Positions 4,686-32,000 of a stretch of DNA of 32,000 nt are shown here, one piece after another. The DNA lies in assembly GCF_000025685.1 (NCBI RefSeq), contig NC_013966.1, forward strand, positions 510,001 to 542,000, in the 5' to 3' direction. Numbering within the stretch: the stretch's first letter is position 1; every line of letters begins with the position of its first letter. A program made the translations under genes and the position numbers. Below the pieces are notes generated by a model. It was not told the DNA's origin and ran no database searches. It saw only the letters and a list, made by a program, of their open reading frames with translations. The stretch comes from Haloferax volcanii DS2 (GTDB taxonomy: Archaea; Halobacteriota; Halobacteria; Halobacteriales; Haloferacaceae).

Positions 4686-4687
4686 CC

Positions 4688-12925: not shown

Positions 12926-12945
12926 GTCGCCGGTCGGGGAGCCGC

Positions 12946-13416
12946 TTACTCCGCGGCCGACTTCGTCTTGATGAGGAACTTCATGTCGCCTTCGAGGACG
13001 ACCGTGCCGTCCTGCTTCGTCATCTCGATTTCGAGGACGACCAAGCCGGCGTCGTCGCGGCTCCCGAGGTCCTTCCGCTCCGAGACGACCATCGTCTGCG
13101 AGAGCGTGTCACCGATGAACACCGGGTTCGGCAGGTCCATGTAGTTCATCCCGAGGAAGGCGATGGCGGTGCGCTCGACGATGCCCGACCGGTACACGAA
13201 GCCGGTCGACTGGACGAACGTCATCGGCCCGTGGGCGATTCGCTGGCCGAACTGGGTGTCTTCCGCGTACTCGCTGTTCGTGTGGAGTTCGGTCCAGTCG
13301 CCCGACAGCGCGGAGTGCATCATGAAGTCCGCCTCGGTGACGGTGCGACCGACGCTCTGGAACTCCTTGCCCTCCTCGAAGTCCTCGAAGTAGTGCGGTT
13401 CGTAGCTGTATGCCAT
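12946..13416 (-). CDS. MaoC-like (R)-specific enoyl-CoA hydratase, hotdog fold (candidate PaaZ-hydratase equivalent)
   Basis: 156 aa with a MaoC dehydratase pattern (...FGQRIAHGPMTF...). TATA-like TTTATC lies about 21 nt upstream on the minus strand. Confidence 0.82.
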   Translation of the reverse strand: MAYSYEPHYFEDFEEGKEFQSVGRTVTEADFMMHSALSGDWTELHTNSEYAEDTQFGQRIAHGPMTFVQSTGFVYRSGIVERTAIAFLGMNYMDLPNPVFIGDTLSQTMVVSERKDLGSRDDAGLVVLEIEMTKQDGTVVLEGDMKFLIKTKSAAE

Positions 13417-13512
13417 ACCTCACCGTCACCGCCATCAGATAAAGTAGTTTACATACCTATCTTTCCTGACAGTCGGTGGCTACTTGGGGAGCGCAGGACG
13501 ACGTGTGGTCGC

Positions 13513-13923
13513 ATGTCGGAGCAAGACGACTACGCGGAGATACGGGAGCGCGCCTCGAACGACCCCTACTGCGGGCGCGTCGGCATCGACCTCGCCGAGG
13601 TCGGTGACGGGTACGCGGAGACGACGCTGACCGTGGCCGAAGACCACCTGAACTTCCACGGGACGCCCCACGGAGGCGCGGTGTACAGCCTCGCGGACGC
13701 GGCCTTCGCGGCCGCCTCGAACAGCCACGGCGACGCCGCGTTCGCGCTGGAGACGAACATCTCGTACCTCGCGGCCGCCGAGGTGGGCGAGACGCTCCGC
13801 GCGGTCGCCCGGGAGACGCACCTCGGGCGACGGACCGCGGAGTACGAGGTCGTCGTCTCCGGCGGGGACGGCGAGCGAATCGCGACCTTTCGGGGGCGCG
13901 TCTACAAGCCCGGCGGTCGCTGA
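13513..13923 (+). CDS. paaI: PaaI-type phenylacetyl-CoA-family thioesterase (copy 2)
   Basis: ATG 13513 within ORF 12922..13923 (the upstream part is antisense shadow of maoC). It has the hotdog motif HGTPHGGAVYSLADAAF. It is convergent with, and 9 nt from, paaK. Confidence 0.85.
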   Translation: MSEQDDYAEIRERASNDPYCGRVGIDLAEVGDGYAETTLTVAEDHLNFHGTPHGGAVYSLADAAFAAASNSHGDAAFALETNISYLAAAEVGETLRAVARETHLGRRTAEYEVVVSGGDGERIATFRGRVYKPGGR

Positions 13924-18110: not shown

Positions 18111-19022
18111 ATGATGGTTCCCGAACCCCTTTCGGTGATGCAAGTGAGTGTACTCGGCGCGGGAACCATGGGTCACGGCATCGCGCAGGTGGCCGCGATG
18201 GCCGGTCACGAGGTGACGATGCGTGACATCGAAGCGGCGTACGTCGACGATGGACTGGACGCCATCGAGTCGAACCTCCGGGGCGGCGTCGACCGCGACA
18301 AGGTGACGCCCGACGAGATGGCGGCGACGCTCGATCGACTCTCGGGGACGACCTCGCTGGAGGCGGCCGTCACCGACGCCGACCTCGTCGTCGAGGCGGT
18401 TCCCGAGGATATGGAACTCAAGCGCGAGACGGTCGCGGAGGTCGAATCCCTCGTCGACGACGACGCCGTCATCGCGTCGAACACGTCGTCGCTCTCCGTG
18501 ACCCAGATACTGAGCGCCCTCGAACGTCCGGAGCGCGGCCTCGGACTCCACTTCTTCAACCCGGTCCACATCATGGGGCTCGTCGAGGTCGTCGTCGCGG
18601 AACAGACGAGCGAATCGACGCTGGCGTTCGCCACCGAGTTCGTCGAGGGCATCGACAAGACCGCCGTCGAGGTCGGTGACTCGCCCGGCTTCGCCTCCTC
18701 GCGGCTCGGCGTCGCCCTCGGCGTCGAGGCCATGCGCATGGTGCAGGAGGGCGTCGCGTCGCCCGCGGACGTCGACACCGCGATGGAGCTCGGGTACAAC
18801 CACCCGATGGGGCCACTCGAACTCGGAGACGCGGTCGGCCTCGACGTTCGCCTCGACATCCTCGAATACCTACGCGAGGAACTGGGCGAGCGCTTCCGCC
18901 CGCCGCAGATTCTCAAGCGAAAGGTCCGCGCCGGCAAGCTCGGCAAGAAGACCGGTGAGGGCTTCTACGTCTGGGAGGACGGCGAAATCGTCGGCGCGCC
19001 CGAGGACGTGATGGACCGATGA
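18111..19022 (+). CDS. 3-hydroxyacyl-CoA dehydrogenase (PaaH-like)
   Basis: ATG 18111 (or ATG 18138, MQVSVLGAGTMG) within ORF 17613..19022. It has the Rossmann motif VLGAGTMGHGIA, NTSSLS, HFFNP and C-terminal dimerisation domain motifs. Confidence 0.9.
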   Translation: MMVPEPLSVMQVSVLGAGTMGHGIAQVAAMAGHEVTMRDIEAAYVDDGLDAIESNLRGGVDRDKVTPDEMAATLDRLSGTTSLEAAVTDADLVVEAVPEDMELKRETVAEVESLVDDDAVIASNTSSLSVTQILSALERPERGLGLHFFNPVHIMGLVEVVVAEQTSESTLAFATEFVEGIDKTAVEVGDSPGFASSRLGVALGVEAMRMVQEGVASPADVDTAMELGYNHPMGPLELGDAVGLDVRLDILEYLREELGERFRPPQILKRKVRAGKLGKKTGEGFYVWEDGEIVGAPEDVMDR

Positions 19023-19900
19023 GCGGTGACGAGCCGAGCGCCGATGACTCGCAGACAGACGACCTCCGCACCGACGGAGGGGAATCGACCGTCGAGTCGG
19101 TCGCCGCCGAGTGCGAGACGGTCGACGCCGTCGTCGACGACCGCGTCGAAGGCGTCGTCACCGTGACGCTGAACCGCCCCGACGCGCGGAACGCGCTCAA
19201 CGCGACGCTCCGGGCTGAACTCAAGCGCGTCCTCGACGCCATCGAAGCGAGCAGCGCCCGCGTCGTCGTCCTCACCGGCTCCGACGAGGCGAAGGCGTTC
19301 GTCGCCGGCGCGGACGTAACGGAGCTCCGCGAGCGCGATATGCTCGAACAGCGCGAGGCGAGCAAGCGACCGCGAGTGTACGAACGCGTCGACGACCTCC
19401 GACAGCCGGTCATCGCCCGCGTAAACGGCCACGCCCTCGGCGGCGGCTGCGAACTGATGCAGGCCTGCGACGTTCGCATCGCCCACGAGCGGTCGAAACT
19501 CGGCCAACCCGAAATCAATCTCGGCATCATGCCCGGCGGGGGCGGCACCCAGCGACTCGCGCGTCTCGTCGGCGAGGGACACGCCATGCGACTCGTCCTG
19601 ACGGGCGAGCTCATCTCCGCCGAGGAGGCCGCGGACATCGGCCTCGTGGAGGAGGTCCACGGCGACGAGACCTTCGACGAGCGGGTGTACGAACTCGCAG
19701 AGCTGATGGCGACGAAGAGCCCCGTGGCCCTGGAGTTCGCCAAGAAAGCGGTCAAGGCCGCCTCGCGGACAGACCTCGAACAGGGCATCGAGTACGAGGC
19801 GGAGCTGTTCGCCCAACTGTTCGGGTCGCCAGACAAGGACGAGGGTATCGACGCGTTCTTCGAGGACCGCGAACCCGAATGGCACGAGCGCGAGCGATAG
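19019..19900 (+). CDS. Enoyl-CoA hydratase (crotonase, PaaF-like)
   Basis: ATGA overlap with the dehydrogenase gene. Both catalytic Glu contexts are present (GGGCELMQACD and QPEINLGIMPGGGGTQRL). It has an acidic N-terminal extension of about 40 aa. Confidence 0.9.
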   Translation: MSGDEPSADDSQTDDLRTDGGESTVESVAAECETVDAVVDDRVEGVVTVTLNRPDARNALNATLRAELKRVLDAIEASSARVVVLTGSDEAKAFVAGADVTELRERDMLEQREASKRPRVYERVDDLRQPVIARVNGHALGGGCELMQACDVRIAHERSKLGQPEINLGIMPGGGGTQRLARLVGEGHAMRLVLTGELISAEEAADIGLVEEVHGDETFDERVYELAELMATKSPVALEFAKKAVKAASRTDLEQGIEYEAELFAQLFGSPDKDEGIDAFFEDREPEWHERER

Positions 19901-20454
19901 ACTCCTCAACCACGCCGTTCGAACTACTCGAACGGCTTCGAAACCGCCGCGACCGTCCGGCGAGAACTCGCAGCGCAGGCGCGAGCGCTAGTTTCACGCC
20001 GTGAACACGACACCGGGAGCGGCCCGCCCGCGAGCGAGTCCGAAATCGGGGGCGCGCCGGTGGAGGACCGGGCATTCTGTCCTTTCGAACGCGAGTCCGT
20101 ACTCGAGCGACGCCGCCGTATCGGCAGTCGCTATCGATGACCGTCTCGCGCGCGAACCGAACACCGAGTCTCGAATGACGGGGATACGGCGGTTTCGGGG
20201 CGAACGAGACCCAGCAACGATGCGGCCGGCCCACAGGACGGCAGCCGGACGGTTCGTCTCCCACGCCACAATCCGTGACAGGTGTAATTCTGTAATTGCT
20301 CGCGTCCTGCCGCGTTAATCTACAATAGTATAATAAGAATATAACCACATTATGTTCGAGTGGTTCGAACAGTAATCGTCGCAACCGAATCGTCGTCTCA
20401 GCTCCTCGAAAGCGTGATTCTCCGGCTTCGAACGGGAGAGTACTCCCTGAATGA

Positions 20455-20471
20455 GTTCGAACAGTTCGAAC
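20455..20471. promoter_or_regulatory. Tandem palindrome GTTCGAAC-A-GTTCGAAC (copy downstream of iclR)
   Basis: Exact 17-mer, identical to 21314-21330. Each 8-mer is a perfect palindrome. It lies about 42 nt beyond the iclR stop. Confidence 0.5.
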
Positions 20472-20512
20472 CGTTCCGCAGCTTCGGTTCGCCGGCGGGA
20501 CGAGACACCGGG

Positions 20513-21283
20513 TCAGGAGAAGTTGAGGTTGATTTCGACCTCGTTGGCCGCGCCGAGGAGGAGGTCCGCGAGGTCGCCGGTCATTCGGTCGCCCCGAAGC
20601 CGGTTCGAGGGCCCCGAGATGCTTATCGCTCCGACGGGGCGGCCCTCGTTGTCGGTGACGGCGACGCCGACGGCGTGGAGTTTCGGGACGATTTCCTCGC
20701 GGTTGAGCGCGAACCCGCGCTCGCGAATCGTCGCCAGCTCCTCGAAGAGCGCGTCGGGGTCGGTTATCGTCTGCGGCGTCTTCGCCGGGAGGCCGTGTCG
20801 GTCGACGATGTCGCGGACGCGCTCGTCCGGGAACGCCGACAGGATGGCCTTGCCGGCGGCGAGTTGGTGGAGGTACGAGCGCGTCCCCTCCCGCGCTGGC
20901 GTCCGCACCGAGTGCGCGCCGGCCGCGCCGTAGAGGTGGAACCCGCGGCCCTGCTCTTCCGTGACGCACCACACTTTCTCGCCGGTCTGCTCGGCGAGTT
21001 CGTCCAGTTTCGGCTTGGCCACCTCGTACAGTTGGTGCTGGTCGCGCGCGTAGATGCCGAAGTCGAGGAGCCGAAGGCCGACCCGGTAGCCGTCGTCGTC
21101 GGGGACGACGAACCCCTCGCGTTCGAGCGTCTTCAGATGCCGGTGGACCGTGCTCTTGGCCAATCCGAGCTCCGAGGCGAGCCCCGTCGGCCCCATCGGT
21201 CCCCCCGATTTGAGCTGTTCGAGGATACCGAGCGACGTGGCGGCCGTCGTCACCGGTCGGCGCTGTTCGTCGTCTGTCATCAC
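20513..21283 (-). CDS. IclR-family transcription regulator
   Basis: 256 aa with an N-terminal winged HTH (LASELGLAKSTVHRHLKTLEREGFV) and a C-terminal IclR effector domain. TATA TTTATCAC (reverse of 21303-21310) lies about 24 nt upstream of the ATG. Confidence 0.9.
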   Translation of the reverse strand: MMTDDEQRRPVTTAATSLGILEQLKSGGPMGPTGLASELGLAKSTVHRHLKTLEREGFVVPDDDGYRVGLRLLDFGIYARDQHQLYEVAKPKLDELAEQTGEKVWCVTEEQGRGFHLYGAAGAHSVRTPAREGTRSYLHQLAAGKAILSAFPDERVRDIVDRHGLPAKTPQTITDPDALFEELATIRERGFALNREEIVPKLHAVGVAVTDNEGRPVGAISISGPSNRLRGDRMTGDLADLLLGAANEVEINLNFS

Positions 21284-21313
21284 TTATCGTCGGTGTTCAT
21301 TCGTGATAAATCT

Positions 21314-21330
21314 GTTCGAACAGTTCGAAC
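21314..21330. promoter_or_regulatory. Tandem palindrome GTTCGAAC-A-GTTCGAAC abutting the iclR TATA box (candidate IclR autoregulatory operator)
   Basis: Exact 17-mer, immediately upstream (BRE side) of the iclR TATA. It is followed by CTCGAAC half-sites at 21345-21351 and 21366-21372 with roughly helical spacing. It sits in the iclR / ethD divergent spacer. Confidence 0.55.
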
Positions 21331-21422
21331 GTCAGTTCCACCCACTCGAACGCCCTCGACGGCCGCTCGAACCGCGAGTCAGCGATAGAGCAAAGTAACG
21401 TCGGATTGGATCGCAGACGTGC

Positions 21423-21743
21423 ATGATTAAATTGGTGAATATGCTCGTCCGGGACGACGACTACACGCACGAGGAGTTCGTCGAGCGGTGGCGGGGGAGC
21501 CACGCGGAACTCGCGAGGGAGTTTCCGGGGCTCGTGAAGTACGCGACGAGCGTCCCGACCGACCCCGAACGGTCCGAGTACGACGGTATCGTCGAACTCT
21601 ACTTCGAGGACATGGCCGCTCTGAAGGCGGCGTTCGACTCCGAGGTCGGTCAGCGCGTGAACGCCGACGCGGCGGCGTTCACCGACATGGAACGGGGACC
21701 GACGCTCTACGTCGAGGAGACGGTTCACCTCGACAGGTCCTGA
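21423..21743 (+). CDS. EthD-domain protein (dimeric alpha/beta-barrel family)
   Basis: 106 aa. PGLVKYATSVPTDPERSEYDGIVELYFEDMAAL closely parallels both repeats of the protein at 25853..26575. Confidence 0.78.
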   Translation: MIKLVNMLVRDDDYTHEEFVERWRGSHAELAREFPGLVKYATSVPTDPERSEYDGIVELYFEDMAALKAAFDSEVGQRVNADAAAFTDMERGPTLYVEETVHLDRS

Positions 21744-21747
21744 ATCT

Positions 21748-23442
21748 ATGAACACGAGCGAACGACTCGTCGAGAGCCTCGAACGGCTCGGCGTCGAGCG
21801 AATCTTCGGCTACCCCGGCGGCCGCGTCATCGAACTGTTCGACCTGCTGCCCGAGTCGGACATCGACCTCGTGCGCCCCCGCGACGAGCGCGAGGCGAGC
21901 GTCATGGCCGAGATGCACGGTCGGTTGACGGGCGAACCGGGCGTCCTCGCCGGGCAGGGACCGTGGATAGGAAGCCTCGGCCTCATCGGACAGATGGAGG
22001 CGCGCCTCGCCTCGTCGCCGGTGGTCACCATCACCGAGGCCTCCGAGCGCGGGGCCTACTCGACGCTCGCGCCCTACCAGCAGTCCCGCGGCGACTACGG
22101 CGGCCTCGAACTCCCGAAGATTCTCGACGCCGTGACGAAGGAACACTGGTTCCCGCGGACCCCGACCGAGACGGTTCGGAGCCTCCAACTCGCGTTCAAA
22201 CACGCCGTCGCGGGTCGACCCGGCCCGACGGCGGTCATCCTCGACGGCGACGCCGTCACCGAACCGTTCCCGGACGAGTCCGTACCGGCGGTCTGGGACG
22301 ACGAAACGCAGACCAGAACGTGGACCGCCGCGCCGACGGCGCGCGACATCGCCGCCGCCGCCGAGGCGCTCGACGCGGCCGAGCGACCGGTCATCGTCTC
22401 GGGCAACGGCGTCCACGCGTCGGGCGCGTACGACGAACTCGCGGCGGTCGCCGAGGCCTACGAAGCCGCGGTCGTCACCTCCTACCTCGGGAAATCGACG
22501 TTTCCCGAGACGCACCGCCTCGCCGGCGGCGTCATCGGCTCGTTCGGTCACGAGGGCGCGAACCGACTCGTCAGCGAGGCCGACGCGCTCCTCGTCGTCG
22601 GCTGTCGCATGAACCCGATGGACACCAACTGGCAGGCCCCCGACTTCATCCGCCCCGACGAGCAGACGATTATCCACGCCGACATCGACCCGCGGAACGC
22701 CGGATGGGTCTACCCCGCCGACGTGGGGCTCATCGGTGACGCGTCCGAATCGCTGCGCGAACTCGCGGCCGCCGGCGGCACCGACAACGACTGGGCAGAA
22801 GACCGAGCGCGGGAGGCCCGCGAGTCGTTTTACGCGCCCGAGTGCGGGTCGGACGCCGCGCCAATCCTCCCCCAGCGGGCCGTCAAGGAAATCGAGCGCG
22901 TCGTCGACGAGGACACCGTCGTCACCGCCGACTCGGGGAACAACCGCTTTTGGCTGCTCAACTACCTCCAGGTGCCCGCCGTGCAGACGTACTACGGTTC
23001 GGGCGGCGTCGGCGGCATGGGGTGGGCGACGCCCGCCGCGGTGTCGGCCGCGCTGGCGACCGACAAACACGTCGTCGGCGTCGCGGGCGACGGCGGCTTC
23101 GCCATGACGATGACGAGCGTCGAGACGGCGGTCGAACACGGCGTCGCGCCGACGTTCGTCGTCCTCAACGACACCAGCCTCGGGATGGTCAGACAGATGC
23201 AGCACGTGCCCGACGACATCGCGGGCGTCGAGTTCCACGACACGGACTTCGCGCGGGTCGCGGAGGCGTTCGGCGCGACGGGCGTCCGCGTCGAGACGCC
23301 GGGCGAACTCGGCGACGCGCTCGCCGACGCGAAGACGCACGGCCTCCCGGCGGTCATCGACGCCCGTATCGACCGCAGTCAGGACATGGCCGCGACGCTC
23401 CAGTCGTCGTTCTACGCGTCGGTCGGGGGGCTCCACGAATAG
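21748..23442 (+). CDS. Thiamine-diphosphate-dependent enzyme (acetolactate-synthase / 2-ketoacid-decarboxylase superfamily)
   Basis: 564 aa with the PYR-domain motif IFGYPGG, catalytic Glu context RDEREASVMAEMHGR and the ThDP/Mg motif GDG-x24-ND (VAGDGGF...VVLNDTS). It starts 4 nt after the ethD stop. Confidence 0.88.
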   Translation: MNTSERLVESLERLGVERIFGYPGGRVIELFDLLPESDIDLVRPRDEREASVMAEMHGRLTGEPGVLAGQGPWIGSLGLIGQMEARLASSPVVTITEASERGAYSTLAPYQQSRGDYGGLELPKILDAVTKEHWFPRTPTETVRSLQLAFKHAVAGRPGPTAVILDGDAVTEPFPDESVPAVWDDETQTRTWTAAPTARDIAAAAEALDAAERPVIVSGNGVHASGAYDELAAVAEAYEAAVVTSYLGKSTFPETHRLAGGVIGSFGHEGANRLVSEADALLVVGCRMNPMDTNWQAPDFIRPDEQTIIHADIDPRNAGWVYPADVGLIGDASESLRELAAAGGTDNDWAEDRAREARESFYAPECGSDAAPILPQRAVKEIERVVDEDTVVTADSGNNRFWLLNYLQVPAVQTYYGSGGVGGMGWATPAAVSAALATDKHVVGVAGDGGFAMTMTSVETAVEHGVAPTFVVLNDTSLGMVRQMQHVPDDIAGVEFHDTDFARVAEAFGATGVRVETPGELGDALADAKTHGLPAVIDARIDRSQDMAATLQSSFYASVGGLHE

Positions 23443-23531
23443 CGCGCGGTGACGAGTCGGCCGTCTCGGCCGCGCTCGGTGGTCCGCGTTCGGGAAACAC
23501 TTTTCTCGCGCGCAGGGAGAACTACGATACC

Positions 23532-24494
23532 ATGTCATCATCGACCGTGATGGTTACGGGCGGGACCGGTTTCATCGGCTCGTACGTCGCGTCGGACCTC
23601 GTCGCGGCCGGCCACGACGTGGTCGCCTACGACCGCTCGACCGACCCGCGCATCCTCGACAGACTCGGCGTCGCCGACGACGTGACGATACGCCGCGGCG
23701 ACGTGACCGACCCGACCGACGTGTTCCGGGCGGTGCGAGAGATCGGCGCGACGCACATCGTCCACCTCGCGGCGCTCCTGACGACGACGGCGCGGGAGAA
23801 CCCGCGGGCCGCGCTCGACGTGAACGTCCAAGGGACGAACAACGTCTTCGAGACCGCGCGCGCCCTCCCCGAGCAGGTCGAGCGCGTCGCGTGGGCGTCG
23901 TCGGCGGCGGTGTACGCCCCGCCCGCGAACTACGGCGGCGACTTCGTGACCGAGTCCGACCTCGTCTACCCCGATACGCTCTACGGGGCGACAAAGGAGT
24001 ACAACGAGCATCAGGCCCGAGTCTACTACGAGGACTTCGGCGTCTCGCACGTCGCGCTCCGACCGACGGTCGCCTACGGCCCGTACCGCGAGACCGGCGG
24101 GTCCGCGTTCCTCGCGAACATCGTCGAGAAACCGGCGCTCGGCGAGCCGTTCAGCGTCGACTACGGCGACCAGGTCATCGACTGGCAACACGTCCGCGAC
24201 ATCGCGCAGGCGTTCCGCAAGGCGACGTTCGTGCCCGAAGACGACCTCTCCCAACGCGTCTACAACGTCCGCGGGGAGTTGGCGACGATTCGCGAGGCCG
24301 CGGAGACGGTACGGCGGCTCCTCCCCGACGCCGACCTCACGGTCTCCGGCGAGGGCGAACTCCCGTGGACCCAAGAACTCGACGTGACGCAGGCGCAAGC
24401 CGACCTCGGCTACGACCCGGAGTACGACCTCGAAGCCGGGTTCCGCGACTACGTCAACGTGCTTCGGAAGGAACACGGGTTGGAGCCAGTCTGA
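23532..24494 (+). CDS. NAD-dependent epimerase/dehydratase (extended SDR)
   Basis: ATG 23532 within ORF 22842..24494. It has the Rossmann motif VTGGTGFIGS and catalytic YGATK (YxxxK). Confidence 0.88.
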   Translation: MSSSTVMVTGGTGFIGSYVASDLVAAGHDVVAYDRSTDPRILDRLGVADDVTIRRGDVTDPTDVFRAVREIGATHIVHLAALLTTTARENPRAALDVNVQGTNNVFETARALPEQVERVAWASSAAVYAPPANYGGDFVTESDLVYPDTLYGATKEYNEHQARVYYEDFGVSHVALRPTVAYGPYRETGGSAFLANIVEKPALGEPFSVDYGDQVIDWQHVRDIAQAFRKATFVPEDDLSQRVYNVRGELATIREAAETVRRLLPDADLTVSGEGELPWTQELDVTQAQADLGYDPEYDLEAGFRDYVNVLRKEHGLEPV

Positions 24495-24533
24495 GCCGAG
24501 AGCCGACGGGCCGAAACGTCGCCGTGGAGTCGG

Positions 24534-24743
24534 TCACGGCCGCCGAGCGTCGTCGGCGCCCTCGGTCTCGGGACCGTCCAGCAGGTCGCGGATATCGTCG
24601 GGCGACAGCAGGTCGACGAGGCTCTCGCCCGAGTCGTAGCGCTCGCGCTCGTCGGGCGTGAGATAGTCCGCGAGGTCGCGTTCTGTGAGCAGTTCCTCGA
24701 GTCTGTCGTCGAGGTCGTCCGGGTCGTAACCGGGGATGACCAT
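24534..24743 (-). CDS. Small highly acidic hypothetical protein (69 aa)
   Basis: Complete ORF with a halophile-like acidic composition. TATA-like TTATAA lies about 24 nt upstream of the ATG on the minus strand. No recognisable domain. Confidence 0.45.
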   Translation of the reverse strand: MVIPGYDPDDLDDRLEELLTERDLADYLTPDERERYDSGESLVDLLSPDDIRDLLDGPETEGADDARRP

Positions 24744-24821
24744 ATCACCGGATTGTCGCGAGCGCCCTTATAACACGGCACGCGTCGCGTTTCCGACGAG
24801 TTCGGAGGGCGAGCCGCCCGC

Positions 24822-25193
24822 TCACCCCACGACGACGCCGTCGTCCTTCGCGTTCGGCGCGCCGACGACGAACACCTCGCCCGCCTCGACACAGCGCAGT
24901 TGCCGAACCTCGTCGGGCGAGACGACCACGAAGTCGCCCGGTTCGAGGTCGAGGGCCTCGGTCTCCTCGCCGTCGTCGCCGGCGAAGGCGAGTTCGAACG
25001 CGCCGGAGAGGACGTGATACAGTTCCTCTTGTTCGCGCTGGTAGTGCATCGGTCCCGACCCGCCCGCATCGAACGACCAGACCGACGGGCGCATCTTCCG
25101 CGGGCGAAGCTCGTAGCCGACGGCCTTGACTCGGGCGTCGGCGTTCTCCACGTCGTGCGGTTCGAGGTCGGCGAGGTTGACGTGTTCGTACAT
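24822..25193 (-). CDS. Cupin-fold protein with a degenerate metal motif
   Basis: 123 aa. Cupin motif 1 reads GPMHYQREQEELYHVLSG (HxH becomes HxQ). Motif 2 reads PGDFVVVSPDEVRQL, with no His at the usual position. TATA-like CTATAAT lies about 23 nt upstream. Confidence 0.72.
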   Translation of the reverse strand: MYEHVNLADLEPHDVENADARVKAVGYELRPRKMRPSVWSFDAGGSGPMHYQREQEELYHVLSGAFELAFAGDDGEETEALDLEPGDFVVVSPDEVRQLRCVEAGEVFVVGAPNAKDDGVVVG

Positions 25194-25258
25194 CGGCGCG
25201 AGCTACGAAGGGCGGGATTATAGCTGTGGTGACGATTGCCGTGGGAACTGCTGTCGCG

Positions 25259-25849
25259 CTACTGCGTCTGGGAGTACTCTTCGACCCACTCCTGTAAGCT
25301 GATTCCCATCGCGGCCTGCGTGATGGCGTTCGAGGACGCCGAGTTCGCGCTCTTGACGAGTTCGGCTTCGAGCGTCCGGGTCGGAATCTCACCGATAAAG
25401 TGGGGAATGGCGCGCTGGACCGCGAGCGGGCAGCCGACCTCGTGGGCGAGGGCGTAGCCCGAAAGCGAGTGCGGAATCTCCCCGCTGGCGTACTCCGGGT
25501 CGGGGTCGTCGAGTCTGTCGTCGTCCACGAAGTCGACGTACTCGTAGCACTTGCCCACGTCGTGGAGGAGGCAGGCCGCGCGGACCACGTCGAAATCCGG
25601 GTCCGCGCCGTGGAAGTCCCGCTGTTCCTCGGCGGCGCGGACGGCGATGCGGGTCACGCCGCGGACGTGCTCGACGTTCGTCACCTCGTGGATGTTCCAC
25701 GCGTAGGGGATGTCTGCGATGTCTCGCCAACCGCCGCGGGCGAGACCGAGACACCAGGCTTCTCTGACCCTGTCGCGGAGGCCGTCGTCCTCGATGTCGT
25801 CGAGTTCGGGGAAGGCGACCTCGACCTGCGCGCGGTAGTCGTGCGACAT
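25259..25849 (-). CDS. HD-domain metal-dependent protein
   Basis: 196 aa with the HD dyad in ACLLHDVGK and further His at about aa 54, 61, 127, 136 and 150. It starts 3 nt after the stop of the double-EthD gene, so the two are probably co-transcribed. Confidence 0.78.
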   Translation of the reverse strand: MSHDYRAQVEVAFPELDDIEDDGLRDRVREAWCLGLARGGWRDIADIPYAWNIHEVTNVEHVRGVTRIAVRAAEEQRDFHGADPDFDVVRAACLLHDVGKCYEYVDFVDDDRLDDPDPEYASGEIPHSLSGYALAHEVGCPLAVQRAIPHFIGEIPTRTLEAELVKSANSASSNAITQAAMGISLQEWVEEYSQTQ

Positions 25850-25852
25850 CGC

Positions 25853-26575
25853 TCAGCCCCCGCTCGCGTCTTTCTGAACCGTCTCGCGGCCGACGAACCG
25901 CGGACGGTCACCGATGGAGAGGAAGTTGTCGACATCTTCGCGGGGCGCGTTCGCCTTCGGGTGGTCGGGGTCGTAGTCGCGCGAGGACTCGTGGCCGAGG
26001 CCCGCCCGGAGCGCGTCGAGGCTCTCGAAGTAGAGTTCTGCGACGCCGTCGAACTCGGCGCGTTCGGGGTCGGTCGGGACGACGCGGGCGTACCGGACCA
26101 CGCCGGGAATCTCGCGGGCGAGGGGGACGTGGGTGTTCGCCCAGTGGTCGAGGAACTCGTCGTGGCTCATCCCGTCTTTGCGGACGAGAAACGCCGAGTG
26201 CTTGTAGAGGCCCGTCGTGTCGCCGCCGGTCTCGTCTTTCTCGACGACCTCCTCGCCGATGATTCGAGGGCGTCGCTCGACGTCGAGGAAGTTGTCCACG
26301 TCGGCTCTCGCTTCTCTCGCCGTCCCCTTCGCCGGGTCGTAGTCGCGCGAGCCCCCGCCGCCGAGCGCGTCGTGGAGGGCGTCGAGGTCGTCGAAGTAGA
26401 GTTCCGCGAGACCGTCGAACTCGGAGGCCTCGGCGTCGACGGGGAGGACCGTCTGGTAGCGGACGACGCCCTCGATGTCGCGGGCGATGGGCGTGTGGTT
26501 GTCCTGCCAGTACGTGACGAACTCGTCGTGACTCATCCCCGCCTTGCGGACAGGCAGGGCTACGTGCTTGTACAT
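25853..26575 (-). CDS. Tandem double EthD-domain protein
   Basis: ORF 25853..26845 trimmed to ATG 26575 (MYKHVALPVRKAGMSHDEF...). Two ~120-aa halves are clearly homologous (MYKHVALPVRKAGMSHDEF / LYKHSAFLVRKDGMSHDEF; FDGLAELYFDDLDAL / FDGVAELYFESLDAL). TATA TTTATTTT lies about 27 nt upstream. Confidence 0.8.
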   Translation of the reverse strand: MYKHVALPVRKAGMSHDEFVTYWQDNHTPIARDIEGVVRYQTVLPVDAEASEFDGLAELYFDDLDALHDALGGGGSRDYDPAKGTAREARADVDNFLDVERRPRIIGEEVVEKDETGGDTTGLYKHSAFLVRKDGMSHDEFLDHWANTHVPLAREIPGVVRYARVVPTDPERAEFDGVAELYFESLDALRAGLGHESSRDYDPDHPKANAPREDVDNFLSIGDRPRFVGRETVQKDASGG

Positions 26576-26675
26576 GCGTACACCTGCCGATTCGCGTATG
26601 AGAAAATAAATCATGAGGTGTGTTCGCAACGCCCATCTACAACAAATTAATGTGATAGTCACGAGTGGTGGGCGT

Positions 26676-27950
26676 ATGCCTTTCCACGAGCGGGGGTTCA
26701 TGAGCGGGACCCGCGGGACGATGGCCGTCGACTGGGAACAGCGCATCGACGTAAAGCGGATGCGCGAGGAGCGGAAGGACCGCGCCCTCTCGCGGATGCG
26801 CGATGCGGGTCTCGGGAGTATGCTCCTCATCGACGACCCGAACATCCGGTACGTGACCGGGTTGGCGATGACCGGCGGGTCGGGCGCGGACCACTACTCG
26901 CTGCTTCTGGAAGACGGCACGGTCGTCCACTGGGACACCGCCGACCACGCGAGCAATCAGCGGTACAACTGCCCGTGGCTGACCGACGTTCGCTACGGCT
27001 GTCCCGGACTGGGGAACGTCCCGCGGGCGTCCGGCCGCGACTCGGCCCGGTCGTTCCTCCTCGACAAGATGGCCCAGACCGTCGTCGACGCCCTCGACGA
27101 GTACGGCCTCGCGAACGAGGCGATGGGCATCGACACCGGCCACGCGGGGCTGCTCGACGCCTTCGAATCGAAGGGCATCGACGCCCGGCCGGCCGAGTGC
27201 GCGGCGGTGATGGAAGACGCCCGAAAGACCAAGACCGAAGACGAAATCGAATGTCTGCGACAGGTCGCGGCCATCTGCGAGGCGGGCTTTCAGACCATCG
27301 CGGAGAACGCGAAACCGGGCGCGCGGGAGTCGGAGGTGTGGGGCGACGCCGTCCGCGAACTCTGGCGGCACGGCGCGATGGCGCAGGGCGGCTACCTCAC
27401 GTCGGGGCCGAACACGTGGCCGAAGCACCAAGCGAACACGACGGACCGGCTGATTCGCCCCGGCGATCTCGTCTACGCCGACTTCTACAACGTCGGCTAC
27501 CTCGGCTACCGGTCGTGTTACTACCGGACCTTCTCGATGGGCGAGCCGACCGACGAACAGCGCGACGCCTACGAGACGGCCCGCGACAACCTCTACGCCG
27601 TCCTCGACGAAATCGAGCCGGGGAAGACCACCGACGAAATCGCGGCGGCGTTCCCGGACATGGCGGGCGAACACGCCGACTGGTACGGCGCGGACGACCA
27701 CTGGCAGCTGACGACCAACCACTGGGCCCACGGCCTCGGCCTCCAACTGTACGAGGTGCCGCTCATCTGGCGCGGCCTCTCGCCGGACCATCCCATAGAA
27801 ATCGAGGCGGGGATGACGATGGCCGTCGAGACCCAGGAACCGGCGGGGAGACAGGGCGTCCGCGTCGAGGAGATGGTCGTCGTCCGCGACGACGGCGTCG
27901 AACTCCTCAGCCAGTGGCCCGTCGAGGAGATAACGACTATCGAGTACTGA
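26676..27950 (+). CDS. M24-family (creatinase / Xaa-Pro peptidase fold) protein with an altered metal site
   Basis: ATG 26676 is chosen because TATA AAATTAAT ends about 24 nt upstream; ATG 26700 and 26721 are alternatives. It has a Creatinase_N-like N-domain and a pita-bread C-domain. The ligand positions read D (YADF), C (GYRSC), H (AHGLGL), E (AVETQ) and E (VRVEEM). Confidence 0.85.
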   Translation: MPFHERGFMSGTRGTMAVDWEQRIDVKRMREERKDRALSRMRDAGLGSMLLIDDPNIRYVTGLAMTGGSGADHYSLLLEDGTVVHWDTADHASNQRYNCPWLTDVRYGCPGLGNVPRASGRDSARSFLLDKMAQTVVDALDEYGLANEAMGIDTGHAGLLDAFESKGIDARPAECAAVMEDARKTKTEDEIECLRQVAAICEAGFQTIAENAKPGARESEVWGDAVRELWRHGAMAQGGYLTSGPNTWPKHQANTTDRLIRPGDLVYADFYNVGYLGYRSCYYRTFSMGEPTDEQRDAYETARDNLYAVLDEIEPGKTTDEIAAAFPDMAGEHADWYGADDHWQLTTNHWAHGLGLQLYEVPLIWRGLSPDHPIEIEAGMTMAVETQEPAGRQGVRVEEMVVVRDDGVELLSQWPVEEITTIEY

Positions 27951-28171
27951 TTTCTGACACGGCAGAGGAACAGTTCACAAATTTTGAAACTTGTGGAATT
28001 TGTTTCCTACATTCGTCTGAGAACAGTTTCAACAGACATCAGCTCGTCAGGAGAGATTACGGTTCGGAATATCGAACGAATAGTCAGTAGTATAGAATAT
28101 CTATAACGGCTGGATACGGCGGGCGAGGATTCCCCGTGTCCCCGAGCCAGCGCCCAGCAGACCGGCCGACG

Positions 28172-29779
28172 CTACTCCGCCTTGCCGTCCTCGCGGTCCC
28201 GGCGGCGTGCGTCGGCGTCGCGGTCGTCGGGGTCGCCGTAGCCGCCGCCGCCCGGCGTCCGAACCGTGACAGTCGTCCCCGCGGGCACGTCGCGGGTCGT
28301 CTTCGACGGGACCGCCTCGCCGTCGACGAGATTCTGTCCCGTCGCCCCGTCCTCGCCGCCGGCGATGCCGCGGGGCGCGACCCGCCGGCGCTCGGTGAGA
28401 AGCGAGACGGTCGCGTCGGCCTCGACCGTGACCGACCGGACGATGCCGAGGCCGCCGCGGAACTCGCCGCGGCCGCCGCTTCCCTCGCGGAGGCCGTACG
28501 CCTCGACGAAAAGCGGGTACTCGGCTTCCAGCGCCTCGACCGGCGTGTTGAGCGTGTTGGTCATCCCGACCTGCACGCCGCCCATACCGTCGCCGCCGGC
28601 GCGGCCGCCGAAGCCGCCGCCGATGGTCTCGTAGTAGGTGAAGCCGTCCGAACCGCCGACGCGACTGCCGATGGTCAGGTTGTTCATCGTCCCCTGTCCC
28701 TGCGCGGGGACGCGCTCGGGGGCCGCGTCGGCGAGCGCCGCGAAGACCACGTCGGTCACGCGCTGGCTGGTCTCGACGTTGCCGCCGACGACCGCCGCGG
28801 GGGCGTCGGGGTTGAGGAGTGAGCCGTCGGGGACCTCGACCGAGATGGGGTCGTAACAGCCCTGGTTCGGCGGTATTTCGGGGTCGGTGACGCAGCGAAC
28901 GACGAAGTACACCGCGCTCTTGGCGACCGCGAGCGGCGCGTTGACGTTGCCGGCGACCTGGTCGGCCGTGCCGTCGAAGTCGAACGCGACGGTGTCGCCG
29001 TCGACCGTCGCGGTCACCTCGACTGGGATGTCGTCGTCGGTCACGCCGTCGCCTTCGAGCACGTCGCGGGCGCGGTACTCGCCGTCGGGCAGGTCGCGCA
29101 GTTCCGCGGTGACGCGGTTCCGGGAGTAGTCCATCACGGCGTCGAACGCCGCGAGAACGCGGGACCGACCGTGTTCCCCGACGAGGTCGGCCAGTCGCTC
29201 CTCGGCGCGCTCGTTCGCCGCGAGTTGCGCGCGGATGTCGGCGCGGCGCTCGCCGGGGTTGCGGACGTTGGCGAGGAGGAGCGACAGCACGTCGTCGTTG
29301 GTCTCGCCGCCGGCGACGAGTCTGACCGGCGGGAGTCTGAGCCCCTCCTGATAGATTTCGCGCGCGCCGGCGGGCATGCTGCCGGGCGTCATCCCGCCCA
29401 CGTCGGCGTGGTGCGCCCGCGAGACGGCGTAGCCGAGCACCTCGCCGTCGACCGAAAGCGGCGAGACCATCGTCACGTCGGGCAGGTGCGTCCCGCCCTC
29501 GAAGGGGTCGTTGAGGACGAACACGTCGCCCGGTTCCGGGCCGTAGTCGAGGACCGTGTCGACGGCCTCGGGCATCGCGCCGAGGTGGACCGGGATGTGT
29601 TCGGCCTGCGCGACGAGGCGGCCGTCGGCGTCGAACAGCGCCGTCGAGCAGTCGCGGCGCTCCTTGATGTTCGGCGAGTACGACGAGGTGATGAGCACCT
29701 GTCCCATCTCCTCGGCGACGCTCTCGAACTGGTTGCGCATGATTTCGAGCGTCACGGGGTCGACCTCGCGGTCGCTCAT
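28172..29779 (-). CDS. Hydantoinase B / oxoprolinase-family subunit (HyuB-like)
   Basis: 535 aa with an N-terminus (DPVTLEIMRNQFESVAEEMG...SPNIKERRDCSTALFD) typical of HyuB, N-methylhydantoinase B and acetone/acetophenone carboxylase alpha-type subunits. ATGA overlap with the upstream HyuA gene. Confidence 0.9.
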   Translation of the reverse strand: MSDREVDPVTLEIMRNQFESVAEEMGQVLITSSYSPNIKERRDCSTALFDADGRLVAQAEHIPVHLGAMPEAVDTVLDYGPEPGDVFVLNDPFEGGTHLPDVTMVSPLSVDGEVLGYAVSRAHHADVGGMTPGSMPAGAREIYQEGLRLPPVRLVAGGETNDDVLSLLLANVRNPGERRADIRAQLAANERAEERLADLVGEHGRSRVLAAFDAVMDYSRNRVTAELRDLPDGEYRARDVLEGDGVTDDDIPVEVTATVDGDTVAFDFDGTADQVAGNVNAPLAVAKSAVYFVVRCVTDPEIPPNQGCYDPISVEVPDGSLLNPDAPAAVVGGNVETSQRVTDVVFAALADAAPERVPAQGQGTMNNLTIGSRVGGSDGFTYYETIGGGFGGRAGGDGMGGVQVGMTNTLNTPVEALEAEYPLFVEAYGLREGSGGRGEFRGGLGIVRSVTVEADATVSLLTERRRVAPRGIAGGEDGATGQNLVDGEAVPSKTTRDVPAGTTVTVRTPGGGGYGDPDDRDADARRRDREDGKAE

Positions 29780-31791
29780 TCGCCGTCACCCCCGCTTGTC
29801 AGGACGAGCGTCCCGTCGGCTCCGACCGTCCCGCCCCACGCCGGAGGCACGACGACGGTGCTCTCGTGCTGTTCGAGGATGGCCGGCCCCTCGACGGTCG
29901 TCCTCGCGCCGAGGCCGTCGCGGTCGTAGACGGGCGTCTCGCGGAACTCGCCGTCGAAGAAGGCCTCGCGGGTGTCCTTGCGGGCGTCGCCGCCGCCGCG
30001 GTAGGTCACGTCGAGCGGGTCGCGCTCGACCACGGCGGTCGCCCGGACGTTGACGAGTTCGACCGGGTCGTCGAGGCGGTAGCCGTAGGCGCTCTCGTGA
30101 GCCTCGTGGAACCGCGCTTCGACCGCCTCGGCGTCGAACGTCTCGCCGACGGGGACGGTCAGTTCGAAGCTCTGACCGACGTACCGGAGGTCGGCGGCGC
30201 GCCGGACCGCCGCGTCGTCGGGGTCGGTCACGTCGTCGAGCGTGTCGGCTTCGAGGTCGGCGTAGGCGGATTCGACCGCTTCTGCGTCGAGGCCGGAAAG
30301 CGGTCGGCGGAGCGTCCGCACCGAGTCGTGTTTCTGGTCGGCCGCGAGCAGGCCGTACGCCGAGAGGACGCCGCAGGCCCGCGGGACCGCCACGGTCTCG
30401 ATGTCGAGGCTCTCGGCGAGGGCGGCGGCGTGCATCGGCCCGGCACCGCCGAAGGCGACGAGGCCGAACTGCCGCGGGTCGCGGCCGCGCTCGACCGTCA
30501 CGGCCCGAATCGCCCGCGTCATGTTGGCGTTGGCGACGCGGTAGACGCCGCGAGCGGCCGCGAGCGCGTCGTCCAGTCCGGCGTCGGCGGCGAGGCCGGA
30601 GAGCGCGTCGCGGGCGGCGTCCACGTCGAGCGAGAGTTCGCCGCCGAGGGCGGAACTGCCGCCGATGTAGCCGAGGACGACGTTCGCGTCGGTCACGGTC
30701 GGTTCGGTCCCGCCGCGGCCGTAGCAGGCCGGACCGGGGTTCGCCCCCGACGAGCGCGGCCCGACCCGGAGCGCGTTGCCCGAGTCGACCCACGCGATGG
30801 ACCCGCCGCCCGCGCCGACGGTGTTCACGTCCACCATCGGCGTCTTGATGGGCCGGCCGTTGATTTCGGCGTCGGTGGTCCGCTCGACCTCGCCGTCGCG
30901 GACGAGGCTCACGTCGCTGGAGGTGCCGCCCATGTCGAAGGTGACGAGGCCGGCGAGGTCGCCGCCGGAGCCGGTCGCGGTCTCCGCCGCGCCGACGACG
31001 CCCGCGGCCGGCCCGGACATCGTGGTCGTCACGGCGTGCTCGCGCACGGTCGACGCCGGGGCGATACCGCCGTTGGCCTGCATTATCTGAGGGACCGGGA
31101 CGCCGAGGTCCGCGGCCCGCGATTCGAGGCGGCCGAGGTAGCTGTCGATGGCCGGCGTCACGTAGGCGTCGACCGCGGTGGTCGAGGTGCGCTCGAACTC
31201 GCGGAACTCGGCGAGCACCTCGTGGGACGCGGAGACCGGCGCGTCGAGTTCCTCGCGGAGCACGTCGGCGACGACGCGCTCGTTTTCGGGGTGCCGGTAG
31301 GCGTGCAGCAGCGAGACGGCGACGCTCTCCGCGCCGGCGTCGCGGATGTCGTCTGCGAGCGCCCGGACCTCCGACTCGTCGACTTCGGTCTGGATGCCCT
31401 CGACGGTCGCCCGCTCCGTCACCTCGAACCGGCGGCGGCGCGGGACGAGCGGGGCGGGCTTGTCCGCGGTCACGTCGTAGAGGTCGGGTCGGGCCTGTCG
31501 GCCGATTTCGAGCACGTCGCGGAACCCCTCGGTGGTGACGAGCGCGGTCGTCGCGCCGTCGTCTTCGAGGAGGGCGTTGACCGAGACGGTCATCGCGTGG
31601 GTGAACGCGTCGACCTCGGCCGGGTCGATGCCGGCGTCGTCGCAGGCCCTCTCGATGCCGCGGACGACGCCGACGCTCTGGTCGTCCGTGCTCGGGACCT
31701 TCGCGGTGACGAGGCGGCCCTCGGGAGTCAGAAGCGCCACGTCGGTGAACGTGCCGCCGACGTCGACGCCGATTCGCGTCTCTGTGTCCAT
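29776..31791 (-). CDS. Hydantoinase A / oxoprolinase-family ATP-binding subunit (HyuA-like)
   Basis: 671 aa with the ASKHA-type phosphate-1 motif IGVDVGGTFTDV and a second DMGGTSSDV motif. Confidence 0.9.
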   Translation of the reverse strand: MDTETRIGVDVGGTFTDVALLTPEGRLVTAKVPSTDDQSVGVVRGIERACDDAGIDPAEVDAFTHAMTVSVNALLEDDGATTALVTTEGFRDVLEIGRQARPDLYDVTADKPAPLVPRRRRFEVTERATVEGIQTEVDESEVRALADDIRDAGAESVAVSLLHAYRHPENERVVADVLREELDAPVSASHEVLAEFREFERTSTTAVDAYVTPAIDSYLGRLESRAADLGVPVPQIMQANGGIAPASTVREHAVTTTMSGPAAGVVGAAETATGSGGDLAGLVTFDMGGTSSDVSLVRDGEVERTTDAEINGRPIKTPMVDVNTVGAGGGSIAWVDSGNALRVGPRSSGANPGPACYGRGGTEPTVTDANVVLGYIGGSSALGGELSLDVDAARDALSGLAADAGLDDALAAARGVYRVANANMTRAIRAVTVERGRDPRQFGLVAFGGAGPMHAAALAESLDIETVAVPRACGVLSAYGLLAADQKHDSVRTLRRPLSGLDAEAVESAYADLEADTLDDVTDPDDAAVRRAADLRYVGQSFELTVPVGETFDAEAVEARFHEAHESAYGYRLDDPVELVNVRATAVVERDPLDVTYRGGGDARKDTREAFFDGEFRETPVYDRDGLGARTTVEGPAILEQHESTVVVPPAWGGTVGADGTLVLTSGGDGE

Positions 31792-32000
31792 CAGAACACC
31801 CCCATATCGGTCGCGACCGTATAGAGCGTTCGGAGGCCGAGCCAGACGACGACGAGCGTCACCAGCCCGCCGACGACGTTCTGGAGCGTGGAGTTGGCGT
31901 ACGACCCGAGGATGTCGCGGTCGTTCATCACGTAGATGAGGAAGACGGCGACGATGGGAAGCAGGACGCCGTTGGCGACCTGCGCGAAGACGATGGCCTG
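31791..32000 (-). CDS. C-terminal 69 aa of an Nramp/MntH-family divalent-metal transporter (partial, runs off the window)
   Basis: My translation of the minus strand: QAIVFAQVANGVLLPIVAVFLIYVMNDRDILGSYANSTLQNVVGGLVTLVVVWLGLRTLYTVATDMGVF*. The pattern QV.NG.LLP....FL....ND...(M/L)G...N is Nramp-like. The TGA stop shares its A with the hyuA ATG (TGATG). It is not in the ORF track because no start lies in the window. Confidence 0.6.
   Translation of the reverse strand, partial: QAIVFAQVANGVLLPIVAVFLIYVMNDRDILGSYANSTLQNVVGGLVTLVVVWLGLRTLYTVATDMGVF

Follow-up and report, generated by a model that had tools for sequence, protein, structure and literature searches.

Which pathway, if any, is encoded by the genes gathered beside an IclR-family regulator on the pHV4 plasmid of Haloferax volcanii DS2? 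The question is posed by a stretch of 32,000 nucleotides of this replicon (contig NC_013966.1, positions 510,001 to 542,000; hereafter the window, with positions counted from its first letter), in which the interval 21284-32000 brings together three EthD domains, a thiamine diphosphate (ThDP) enzyme, a short-chain dehydrogenase/reductase (SDR), a cupin, an HD-domain protein, a creatinase-like M24 protein, a HyuA/HyuB hydantoinase pair and an Nramp transporter. An earlier description made from the letters alone (the sequence-only reading) took these genes for one cluster and proposed either a funnel into the neighbouring phenylacetate (paa) genes or a cyclic-amide or ketone route. The interval is in fact made of two unrelated things: a module, HVO_A0527-A0535, which is conserved across Halobacteria and is linked to and expressed with the paa genes, and a separate cassette, HVO_A0536-A0539, which encodes a CopG/RHH regulator, Nramp, HyuA and HyuB. 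The former consists of iclR, the ethD1-ThDP-SDR genes, the double-EthD and HD genes (with cupin and DUF8027) and the M24 gene, and is, as a module of a catabolic island, composed of enzyme families to which no chemistry has been assigned. To our knowledge, the phenylacetyl-CoA pathway of archaea has hardly been studied. The module is 70-90% identical across haloarchaeal families, is expressed as protein and sits in a genetic model archaeon, so that its function is directly testable by deletions and substrates.

A conserved module linked to the phenylacetate genes

The interval corresponds to HVO_A0527-A0538, and its proteins are 100% identical to the database entries for pHV4 of H. volcanii DS2. 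Locus tags were taken from three papers, which give HVO_A0527 for IclR, HVO_A0535 for M24, HVO_A0528-A0534 for the genes between them and HVO_A0536-A0538 for hyuB1, hyuA1 and mntH2. Genes were called by a log-odds caller based on codon-position GC, which gives a clean map in this high-GC haloarchaeal DNA, and families were assigned by Pfam and NCBIfam scans; all of the genes previously listed were recovered in their places.

Conservation was measured on loci anchored on the double-EthD gene (HVO_A0534, 25853-26575, minus strand; 240 aa, UniProt D4GRJ6), whose product matches PF07110 twice (93 bits in total). In a profile search with this protein, 177 species of the genome collection had relatives; the 80 best loci, all from different species, were taken with 10-kb flanks and analysed by tblastn with the window proteins and by independent clustering of open reading frames (ORFs). 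The divergent HD-domain gene (HVO_A0533, 25259-25849, minus strand; PF01966, 42.7 bits), whose start lies 3 nt past the double-EthD stop, is present in 68 of these 80 loci and adjoins double-EthD in the same orientation in 56. The M24 gene, with a Creatinase_N domain by Pfam (HVO_A0535, plus strand, with two possible starts, 26676 or 26700, and its end at 27950; UniProt D4GRJ7), occurs in 57 loci at a median identity of 78%, and is the divergent neighbour of double-EthD in 25. The ThDP enzyme, which resembles acetohydroxyacid synthase (AHAS) and has the N, M and C TPP domains (HVO_A0529, annotated ilvB2, 21748-23442, plus strand; 564 aa), was found in 41 loci (median identity 76%), and the extended, epimerase-type SDR (HVO_A0530, 23532-24494, alternative start 23550, plus strand; PF01370, 147 bits) in 45. 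The single-domain EthD protein (EthD1; HVO_A0528, 21423-21743, plus strand; 106 aa, PF07110 59 bits, TIGR02118 59.8 bits), past whose end the ThDP gene starts after 4 nt, stands upstream of the ThDP gene in 21 loci; this overlap-resolved count is used instead of a tblastn count of 53, inflated by cross-matches to double-EthD. An IclR homologue lies within 10 kb of double-EthD in 27 loci, a small acidic DUF8027 protein (HVO_A0531, 24534-24743, minus strand; 69 aa, pI 4.05, recognised by its coding signal and the precomputed Pfam match PF26070) is encoded in 18 and a Cupin_2 protein with a non-canonical metal motif (HVO_A0532, 24822-25193, minus strand; PF07883, 34.9 bits) in 16. Between families, the identities of the module proteins are unusually high, with medians of 73-81%.

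The cluster boundaries as first drawn do not hold, since recurrent partners of the module lie outside 21284-32000. A luciferase-like (F420/FMN-type) oxidoreductase, LLM (HVO_A0517, 11626-12630, minus strand; PF00296, 195 bits), is a recurrent companion of M24 in other genera; it was found in 35 of the 80 loci, mostly directly beside M24. Liv-type ATP-binding cassette (ABC) transporter genes (8259-11576 in the window) were found in 25-26 loci, a methylmalonyl-CoA-epimerase-like VOC protein in 19, PaaK in 18 and PaaI in 16, and other genera add LLM, the transporter, the VOC protein and PaaK/PaaI paralogues to the module. In Natrinema the neighbours include a second paaK and genes for RidA, an FAD oxidase, a penicillin-acylase-family protein and a Na+/solute symporter; Natrialba has a sodium-dependent transporter next to E1 alpha/beta, and Halorussus a CaiB-type CoA-transferase with a thioesterase beside the ThDP gene. 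These neighbours point to amino-acid, 2-oxo-acid and CoA-thioester chemistry. USP, GNAT, MFS, GatD-like and HTH families occur sporadically in the loci and are uninformative.

Some details of these partners deserve mention on their own account. On a Natrinema zhouii plasmid (22088-28444 of that locus) the second paaK directly follows LLM and is followed by a PaaI thioesterase, with the penicillin-acylase-family gene beside HD/double-EthD. The PaaK copies adjoining double-EthD in several genera are only 63-70% identical to the PaaK of the window, which suggests a distinct PaaK2 paralogue tied to the module. In H. volcanii only the C-terminal third of the VOC gene remains (12764-12925, plus strand; about 52 of 160 residues), and the Liv-type ABC operon (8259-12630 region) is without the substrate-binding-protein gene of other genera, with the LLM gene in its place.

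The proposed link of the cluster to the neighbouring paa pathway is supported by synteny, by co-occurrence on the same replicon and by co-expression. With the group of closest relatives excluded, at least one paa gene (PaaK, PaaI, hydratase or dehydrogenase) lies within 10 kb of double-EthD in 33 of 75 loci (44%), against a chance expectation for a 20-kb window of about 1%, roughly estimated from genome size. Furthermore, 12 of the 17 haloarchaeal plasmids with PaaA also carry double-EthD, and three more of the organisms have it on another replicon. The window itself encodes, outside the module, a nearly complete phenylacetyl-CoA pathway: PaaK (13933-15222) scores 797.9 against the cut-off of 700 of the haloarchaeal PaaK equivalog model and PaaA (3415-4359) reaches its equivalog model with 288 against 280; PaaB, PaaC and PaaD are present (PaaA-D span 3415-5942), and an aldehyde dehydrogenase and a MaoC hydratase stand in for PaaZ. 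Two PaaI-type thioesterases, a thiolase, a 3-hydroxyacyl-CoA dehydrogenase, two crotonases and an HTH-10 regulator are also encoded. No gene for a PaaE-type reductase was found anywhere in the 32-kb window. The module was considered as the source of this reductase and rejected, as Pfam and NCBIfam show no redox-cofactor domain of PaaE type in it; by the same scans, none of the module or hydantoinase genes belongs to a Paa family.

Two published expression sets, neither of which had been analysed for this question, bear on the module. In the wild-type proteome of H. volcanii (early versus late growth, log2 fold change; the portion of Table S1 of PMC12240190 considered here), the ThDP enzyme (+1.57), the SDR (+1.58), double-EthD (+2.22) and M24 (+2.15) change together with PaaA, PaaB, PaaK, PaaI, the thiolase, dehydrogenase, hydratases, aldehyde dehydrogenase and LLM (+1.2 to +2.8; LLM +1.35), whereas the values of the equally adjacent HyuB, HyuA and Nramp are +0.52, +0.44 and -0.07. 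In Hfx. alexandrinus, whose locus is 98% identical to the window, RNA-seq under silver stress shows pepQ (M24), galE (SDR) and ilvB (ThDP) induced with paaABCDHIJK, LLM and the aldehyde dehydrogenase (PMC10694973); the cds numbers of that study were matched to the window genes by gene order and names, and the order fits exactly. With synteny kept across many genera and expression coordinated, the suspicion that the grouping is more than a chance juxtaposition is borne out.

The IclR-family regulator (HVO_A0527, 20513-21283, minus strand; Pfam IclR_C and HTH_IclR) probably regulates, at the least, its own gene and the ethD1-ThDP-SDR operon by way of a 17-bp GTTCGAAC-N-GTTCGAAC site. The near-palindrome GTTCGAACAGTTCGAAC occurs exactly at 21314-21330 in the divergent iclR/ethD1 promoter, directly upstream of a TATA-like TTTATC element of iclR, and again exactly at 20455-20471, with degenerate copies at 20354-20370 and 19917-19933. 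The motif has 9 matches with up to 3 mismatches against 0.21 expected, and it flanks iclR in the orthologous loci of at least six genera (Haloferax, Salinigranum, Halogranum, Halobium, Natrarchaeobius and Natronococcus); from this sequence pattern it is probably the IclR operator. Cupin, DUF8027, double-EthD and M24 each have, as read from the sequence, a TATA-like element some 25-30 nt ahead of the start, in agreement with the several short transcription units proposed before.

Between iclR and the convergent hydratase gene (HVO_A0525) lie 612 bp without coding signal (19901-20512), for which the locus-tag numbering leaves A0526 free. Although the conservation of this gap is poor overall, three operator-like GTTCGA-N5-TCGAAC sites are retained in it, together with an AT-rich TATA-like stretch (20320-20345) and a GTNACA..GTA..GTAAT element (20276-20303) that is conserved. 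A small transcript under regulation may arise here, perhaps in antisense to iclR; an Rfam scan of 19000-32000 gave no match.

The separate Nramp-HyuA-HyuB cassette and other features of the window

HVO_A0536-A0539 form an RHH-Nramp-HyuA-HyuB cassette that stands apart from the module. On the minus strand, hyuB1 (HVO_A0536, 28172-29779; Pfam Hydantoinase_B, 697 bits) and hyuA1 (HVO_A0537, 29776-31791; Hydantoinase_A, 309 bits) are preceded by the Nramp gene (mntH2, HVO_A0538), with overlapping stop and start codons both between Nramp and hyuA and between hyuA and hyuB. The Nramp gene of the sequence-only reading is present, but lies mostly outside the window: its last 69 codons are at 31791-32000, and the whole gene of 405 aa, matching PF01566, is found on the source contig, where an RHH gene also precedes it. 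Among the 80 loci anchored on double-EthD, HyuA/HyuB were found in 5 and Nramp in 4, all in the closest relatives (at least 92% identity), and the cassette adjoins the module only in the H. volcanii/H. gibbonsii clade. When haloarchaeal plasmids were searched by tblastn with the complete Nramp protein, 28 records proved to have homologues; the two that were inspected (Haloarcula marismortui pHMA411 and Hfx. mediterranei pHME505) have the order CopG/RHH regulator-Nramp-HyuA-HyuB in unrelated surroundings, with no module gene. Nramp-hyuA-hyuB thus drops out as a member of the cluster, being limited to five loci of closest relatives, self-contained elsewhere and, in the proteome values considered, barely following the module. 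Since the cassette is separate, the hypothesis of a cyclic-amide route joining HyuAB with M24 loses its basis.

The best NCBIfam match of HyuAB is caprolactamase, at 505.6 against 1000 for CapA and 268.4 against 1000 for CapB, while the scores for Apc subunits are far below the 1250-1500 of their cut-offs. The product of hyuAB would be a hydrolase of lactam or hydantoin type that depends on ATP, and the cassette would provide it with a regulator and a divalent-metal importer of its own. It is unusual for an Nramp transporter to be tied so firmly to an ATP-dependent hydantoinase/oxoprolinase-type enzyme, and the arrangement is conserved across haloarchaea (28172-32000 here; 8048-13620 in locus L001; loci L087 and L088). 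The coupling could reflect metal supply to the enzyme or a non-metal substrate for Nramp, and is a second oddity worth a study of its own.

Two further features were noted in the window. In the 15323-18051 region, the thiolase gene is followed, with overlapping stop and start codons, by that of a 522-aa protein (HVO_A0523, annotated UPF0219) with an HMG-CoA-synthase-like region and a ChsH2/DUF35 zinc ribbon, which is co-regulated with the paa genes in the proteome values considered; together with the thiolase, it may represent a paralogous version of the archaeal thiolase/HMGS/DUF35 complex that has taken on the role of PaaJ. Between an amidohydrolase and a crotonase gene, the stretch 1245-1838 is low in GC (about 56%, against 65-75% around it) and contains a 188-aa ORF whose codon composition is atypical and whose product has an HTH-like N-terminus and, towards its C-terminus, hydrophobic segments; the stretch may have been inserted from a foreign source.

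Enzyme families of the module

No protein of the module reaches an NCBIfam equivalog cut-off, in agreement with the earlier statement that the combination maps onto no described pathway. Among its families, EthD (PF07110/TIGR02118) is named after EthD of the Rhodococcus ether-degradation cluster, and we know of no member with established chemistry. Fungal members have been discussed as putative decarboxylases of aromatic polyketides in anthraquinone clusters (PMC4591646). The three EthD domains first noticed in the interval are genuine, one in EthD1 and two in double-EthD, and all are above the family cut-offs: PF07110 gives 59 and 93 bits for the two proteins against 22, and TIGR02118 59.8 and 92.1 against 30.5. 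They are paralogues, the halves of double-EthD being 58% identical to each other and EthD1 39-41% identical to each half. Double-EthD is 65-95% identical across genera, and its AlphaFold2 model (pLDDT 92.8) is a fused pair of ferredoxin-like alpha+beta barrel halves, and resembles in Foldseek the folds of tandem ABM monooxygenases, of bacterial chalcone isomerase and of Cld-like proteins (TM 0.5-0.6), with MmlI-type folds also matching; some orthologues also match the methylmuconolactone-isomerase Pfam. The sole match of its profile in the PDB is the structural-genomics protein BH0200, and neither this search nor Foldseek returned a characterised structural relative. Unlike in other EthD contexts, neither a P450 nor a polyketide synthase turned up among the identified genes of the window and of the examined loci.

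The ThDP enzyme keeps the GDG...N ThDP motif and the catalytic Glu. Among NCBIfam models it matches acetolactate synthase (TIGR00118) best, at 330 bits against a cut-off of 538, with all other AHAS models also below their cut-offs, and its best PDB match is BbmA (8x3x, E 1e-61), ahead of AHAS (E 1e-50). Nothing relevant was found in the literature on BbmA (CsmA, 8X3X), and therefore this similarity gives no substrate prediction. An Xsc-type sulfoacetaldehyde route, prompted by a sulfite-oxidase-like gene in a Halorussus locus, was rejected: the Xsc models score 222-239 bits against 620-676, and the sulfite-oxidase-like neighbour in Halorussus is lineage-specific. In the SDR, the TGxxGxxG NAD motif and YxxxK are intact and conserved.

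The altered metal sites that had been pointed out in the cupin and M24 proteins are real and invariant among orthologues. M24 enzymes of the prolidase/aminopeptidase P type have five metal ligands, D, D, H, E and E; HVO_A0535 retains four of the five (D, H, E, E), and its second metal-binding Asp is replaced by Cys (RSCYYRT versus SDITRT/VDISRT) in the window protein and in all 46 aligned orthologues, with a Tyr at the substrate-binding His of prolidase. DddP is the NCBIfam model that it matches best (97 bits against 600), DoeA-type models give 69 against 575 and 42 against 613, and creatinase is matched in the PDB with E 3.5e-5. Canonical cupins carry the motifs G(X)5HXH(X)3-4E and PXG(X)2H(X)3N, whereas the module cupin has H50-Y-Q52...E56, that is HxQ and not HxH, and R97 for the His of motif 2, both kept in 17 orthologues. 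The LLM protein is TIGR03619-like at 149 bits, below the cut-off of 167.

The HD protein has a mean column identity of 83% across genera, with H61, H96-D97, H127, H136 and H150 invariant, and has no invariant Asp after residue 97, where the ligand set of HD-domain dinuclear oxygenases (MIOX, PhnZ, TmpB) is H...HD...H...H...D. Foldseek with its AlphaFold2 model (pLDDT 87.9) gives weak generic HD matches (best E 1.5e-3), with neither MIOX nor PhnZ among the 50 best PDB matches, and no significant solved relative was found by sequence or fold.

Weighing the readings and comparison with known systems

The best explanation in our view, which we judge to be evenly poised between right and wrong, has two parts: the module belongs to the phenylacetyl-CoA catabolon as a peripheral branch, and the cassette is independent of it. 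Such a branch would most likely convert a phenylalanine-type aromatic 2-oxo or 2-hydroxy acid, or a CoA ester, to phenylacetate or phenylacetyl-CoA. In this scheme the ThDP enzyme would decarboxylate or cleave the substrate, the SDR or the StyD-like aldehyde dehydrogenase at 6276-7727 would handle the carbonyl product, and the EthD-fold proteins, needing no cofactor, would serve as enzymes of tautomerase, decarboxylase or oxygenase type for enolisable aromatic intermediates. A number of observations weigh against the proposed branch. No module enzyme has an assigned chemistry, and the scheme gives no role to M24, LLM, HD, cupin or DUF8027. The ThDP enzyme resembles acetolactate synthases and carboligases; among the 25 best of its 54 NCBIfam matches, the only decarboxylase model is 5-guanidino-2-oxopentanoate decarboxylase (211 bits against 500), and no arylpyruvate decarboxylase model of the pyruvate or indolepyruvate decarboxylase (PDC/IPDC) type occurs. 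About half of the loci are without a paa gene within 10 kb (e.g., Halorussus halophilus), and the truncated VOC gene and missing ABC binding protein make the H. volcanii island copy look partly decayed. As to expression, the proteome values considered cover the ThDP enzyme, SDR, double-EthD and M24 and not HD, EthD1, cupin or DUF8027; many other pHV4 proteins rise too, and PaaC moves in the opposite direction (-2.4, against +1.4 for PaaA and PaaB; PMC12240190), PaaC being also among the proteins most lowered by conditioned medium in a quorum-sensing study. Under silver, hyuAB and mntH are also induced, mainly at the highest dose (PMC10694973), and the co-expression could be a general late-growth or stress response of pHV4. 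More specifically, and as a tentative and somewhat doubtful proposal, HVO_A0528-A0535 and LLM would constitute an undescribed aromatic branch specific to haloarchaea, with genuine EthD enzymes, an AHAS-like ThDP lyase/decarboxylase, a Cys-liganded M24 and a structurally orphan HD metalloenzyme, in which 2-oxo-acid or CoA-thioester intermediates feed or flank the phenylacetyl-CoA pathway; if true, the EthD family would gain its first assigned chemistry.

The same synteny and co-expression would also fit a module that does not feed the pathway but detoxifies or salvages reactive by-products of ring-1,2-epoxyphenylacetyl-CoA/oxepin-CoA, such as 2-hydroxyphenylacetate and tropone-type dead-end CoA esters; their processing would fall to the ThDP enzyme, the VOC protein, thioesterases and isomerases of EthD fold. 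The proximity of the module to PaaI-type thioesterases and to the epimerase-like VOC protein, and the relation of the EthD fold to methylmuconolactone isomerase and ABM folds, which act on ring-derived intermediates, speak for this idea, which we consider quite unlikely: the module is also found without nearby paa genes, and the transporters, RidA, FAD oxidase and symporters suit the uptake of an external substrate better. The loci without paa genes, about half at a distance of 10 kb, are accommodated more easily if the module serves an unrelated pathway (for a compatible solute, an amino-acid derivative or a peptide) and travels on megaplasmid islands, its paa linkage and co-expression being incidental. 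The closest similarities of M24 are indeed to DddP, ectoine hydrolase and prolidases, megaplasmids carry many of the loci and many unrelated pHV4 proteins are also up in the proteome values considered; this account is nevertheless unlikely, given a paa gene near 44% of the loci against an estimated 1% or so by chance, the presence of double-EthD in nearly every organism with plasmid-borne PaaA, and a proteome in which, for the values considered, the module follows the Paa proteins and the Hyu genes, which are just as close, do not. A cyclic-amide or ketone route of hydantoin, creatinine, lactam or acetophenone type, uniting HyuAB, M24 and Nramp, is largely refuted by synteny and hardly credible. 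The genes are adjacent in the window, M24 carries Creatinase_N, HyuAB is related to caprolactamase and acetophenone carboxylase, and silver at 0.5 mM induces hyuAB and mntH along with the other island genes (PMC10694973); but HyuAB/Nramp accompany the module in only 4-5 loci of closest relatives and otherwise form their own cassette without M24, which in other genera partners with LLM and not with Hyu, and in the proteome values considered the Hyu proteins change by 0.4-0.5 and Nramp by -0.07, against about 2 for M24 (PMC12240190).

The remaining alternative concerns the HD protein. MptB (MJ0837) is an Fe(II)-dependent HD-domain cyclic phosphodiesterase of pterin biosynthesis. On the strength of 27% identity to MJ0837, Pfeiffer and Dyall-Smith 2021 named HVO_A0533 as an MptB candidate (PMC8305020), so that it would be the missing haloarchaeal 7,8-dihydroneopterin 2',3'-cyclic phosphate phosphodiesterase (EC 3.1.4.56) of folate biosynthesis, and the HD/double-EthD pair would be a cofactor-biosynthesis unit and not a catabolic one. 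The invariant H...HD...H...H residues suit a metal-dependent HD hydrolase and the very high conservation would suit a housekeeping role. The match to TIGR00295, the presumed model of the MptB family containing MJ0837, is nevertheless 21.2 bits against 172.35, with only residues 58-102, the H...HD core, aligned. Moreover, the gene is plasmid-borne, translationally coupled to the EthD gene and located in aromatic/CoA catabolic islands (68 of the 80 loci), and its double-EthD partner is encoded in only 177 species of the genome collection. We therefore hold the MptB assignment to be very improbable; the module thus bears on a published open issue, the role of HVO_A0533 as MptB gap-filler in haloarchaeal folate synthesis, against which the genomic context argues.

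The known system to which the preferred reading, a peripheral branch of phenylacetate catabolism, relates the module is the bacterial phenylacetyl-CoA catabolon, with its paaABCDE-FGHIJK-Z core and peripheral feeder routes. The window shares with it PaaK, PaaA-D, the thiolase, hydratase and dehydrogenase and PaaI, and the module is linked to and co-expressed with the paa genes as a peripheral route of the bacterial catabolon would be. Unlike the latter, EthD, the ThDP enzyme, SDR, HD, M24, LLM and cupin have no counterpart among bacterial Paa proteins, and regulation, judged from the genes present, appears to rely on IclR and HTH-10 regulators instead of PaaX.

The single components compare with their families in a similar way. 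All three EthD domains are above the cut-offs and the predicted fold is the dimeric alpha+beta barrel of the family, but here two of the domains are joined in one chain as a pseudo-dimer and the remaining one is coupled to a ThDP enzyme. That enzyme has the same three-domain architecture as the AHAS large subunit and the BbmA carboligases, while, in contrast with biosynthetic AHAS, its gene has no adjacent gene for a regulatory small subunit and its context is catabolic. HVO_A0535 shares the Creatinase_N and M24 fold of the 'pita-bread' enzymes (prolidase, the DMSP lyase DddP, ectoine hydrolase and creatinase), from which it differs by the Cys for the second Asp, the Tyr for the prolidase His and scores far under every equivalog cut-off. 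HVO_A0533 has in common with MptB an HD domain with several conserved His, in a context of aromatic and CoA catabolism and not of folate genes. As for the cassette, HyuA and HyuB are full length with strong Pfam matches, as compared with N-methylhydantoinase and caprolactamase CapAB; they differ in scores that are half or less of the caprolactamase cut-offs and in being two subunits, without a third of carboxylase type, and the unit, unlike known hydantoinase/oxoprolinase-type enzymes, is coupled to an Nramp transporter and a CopG/RHH regulator.

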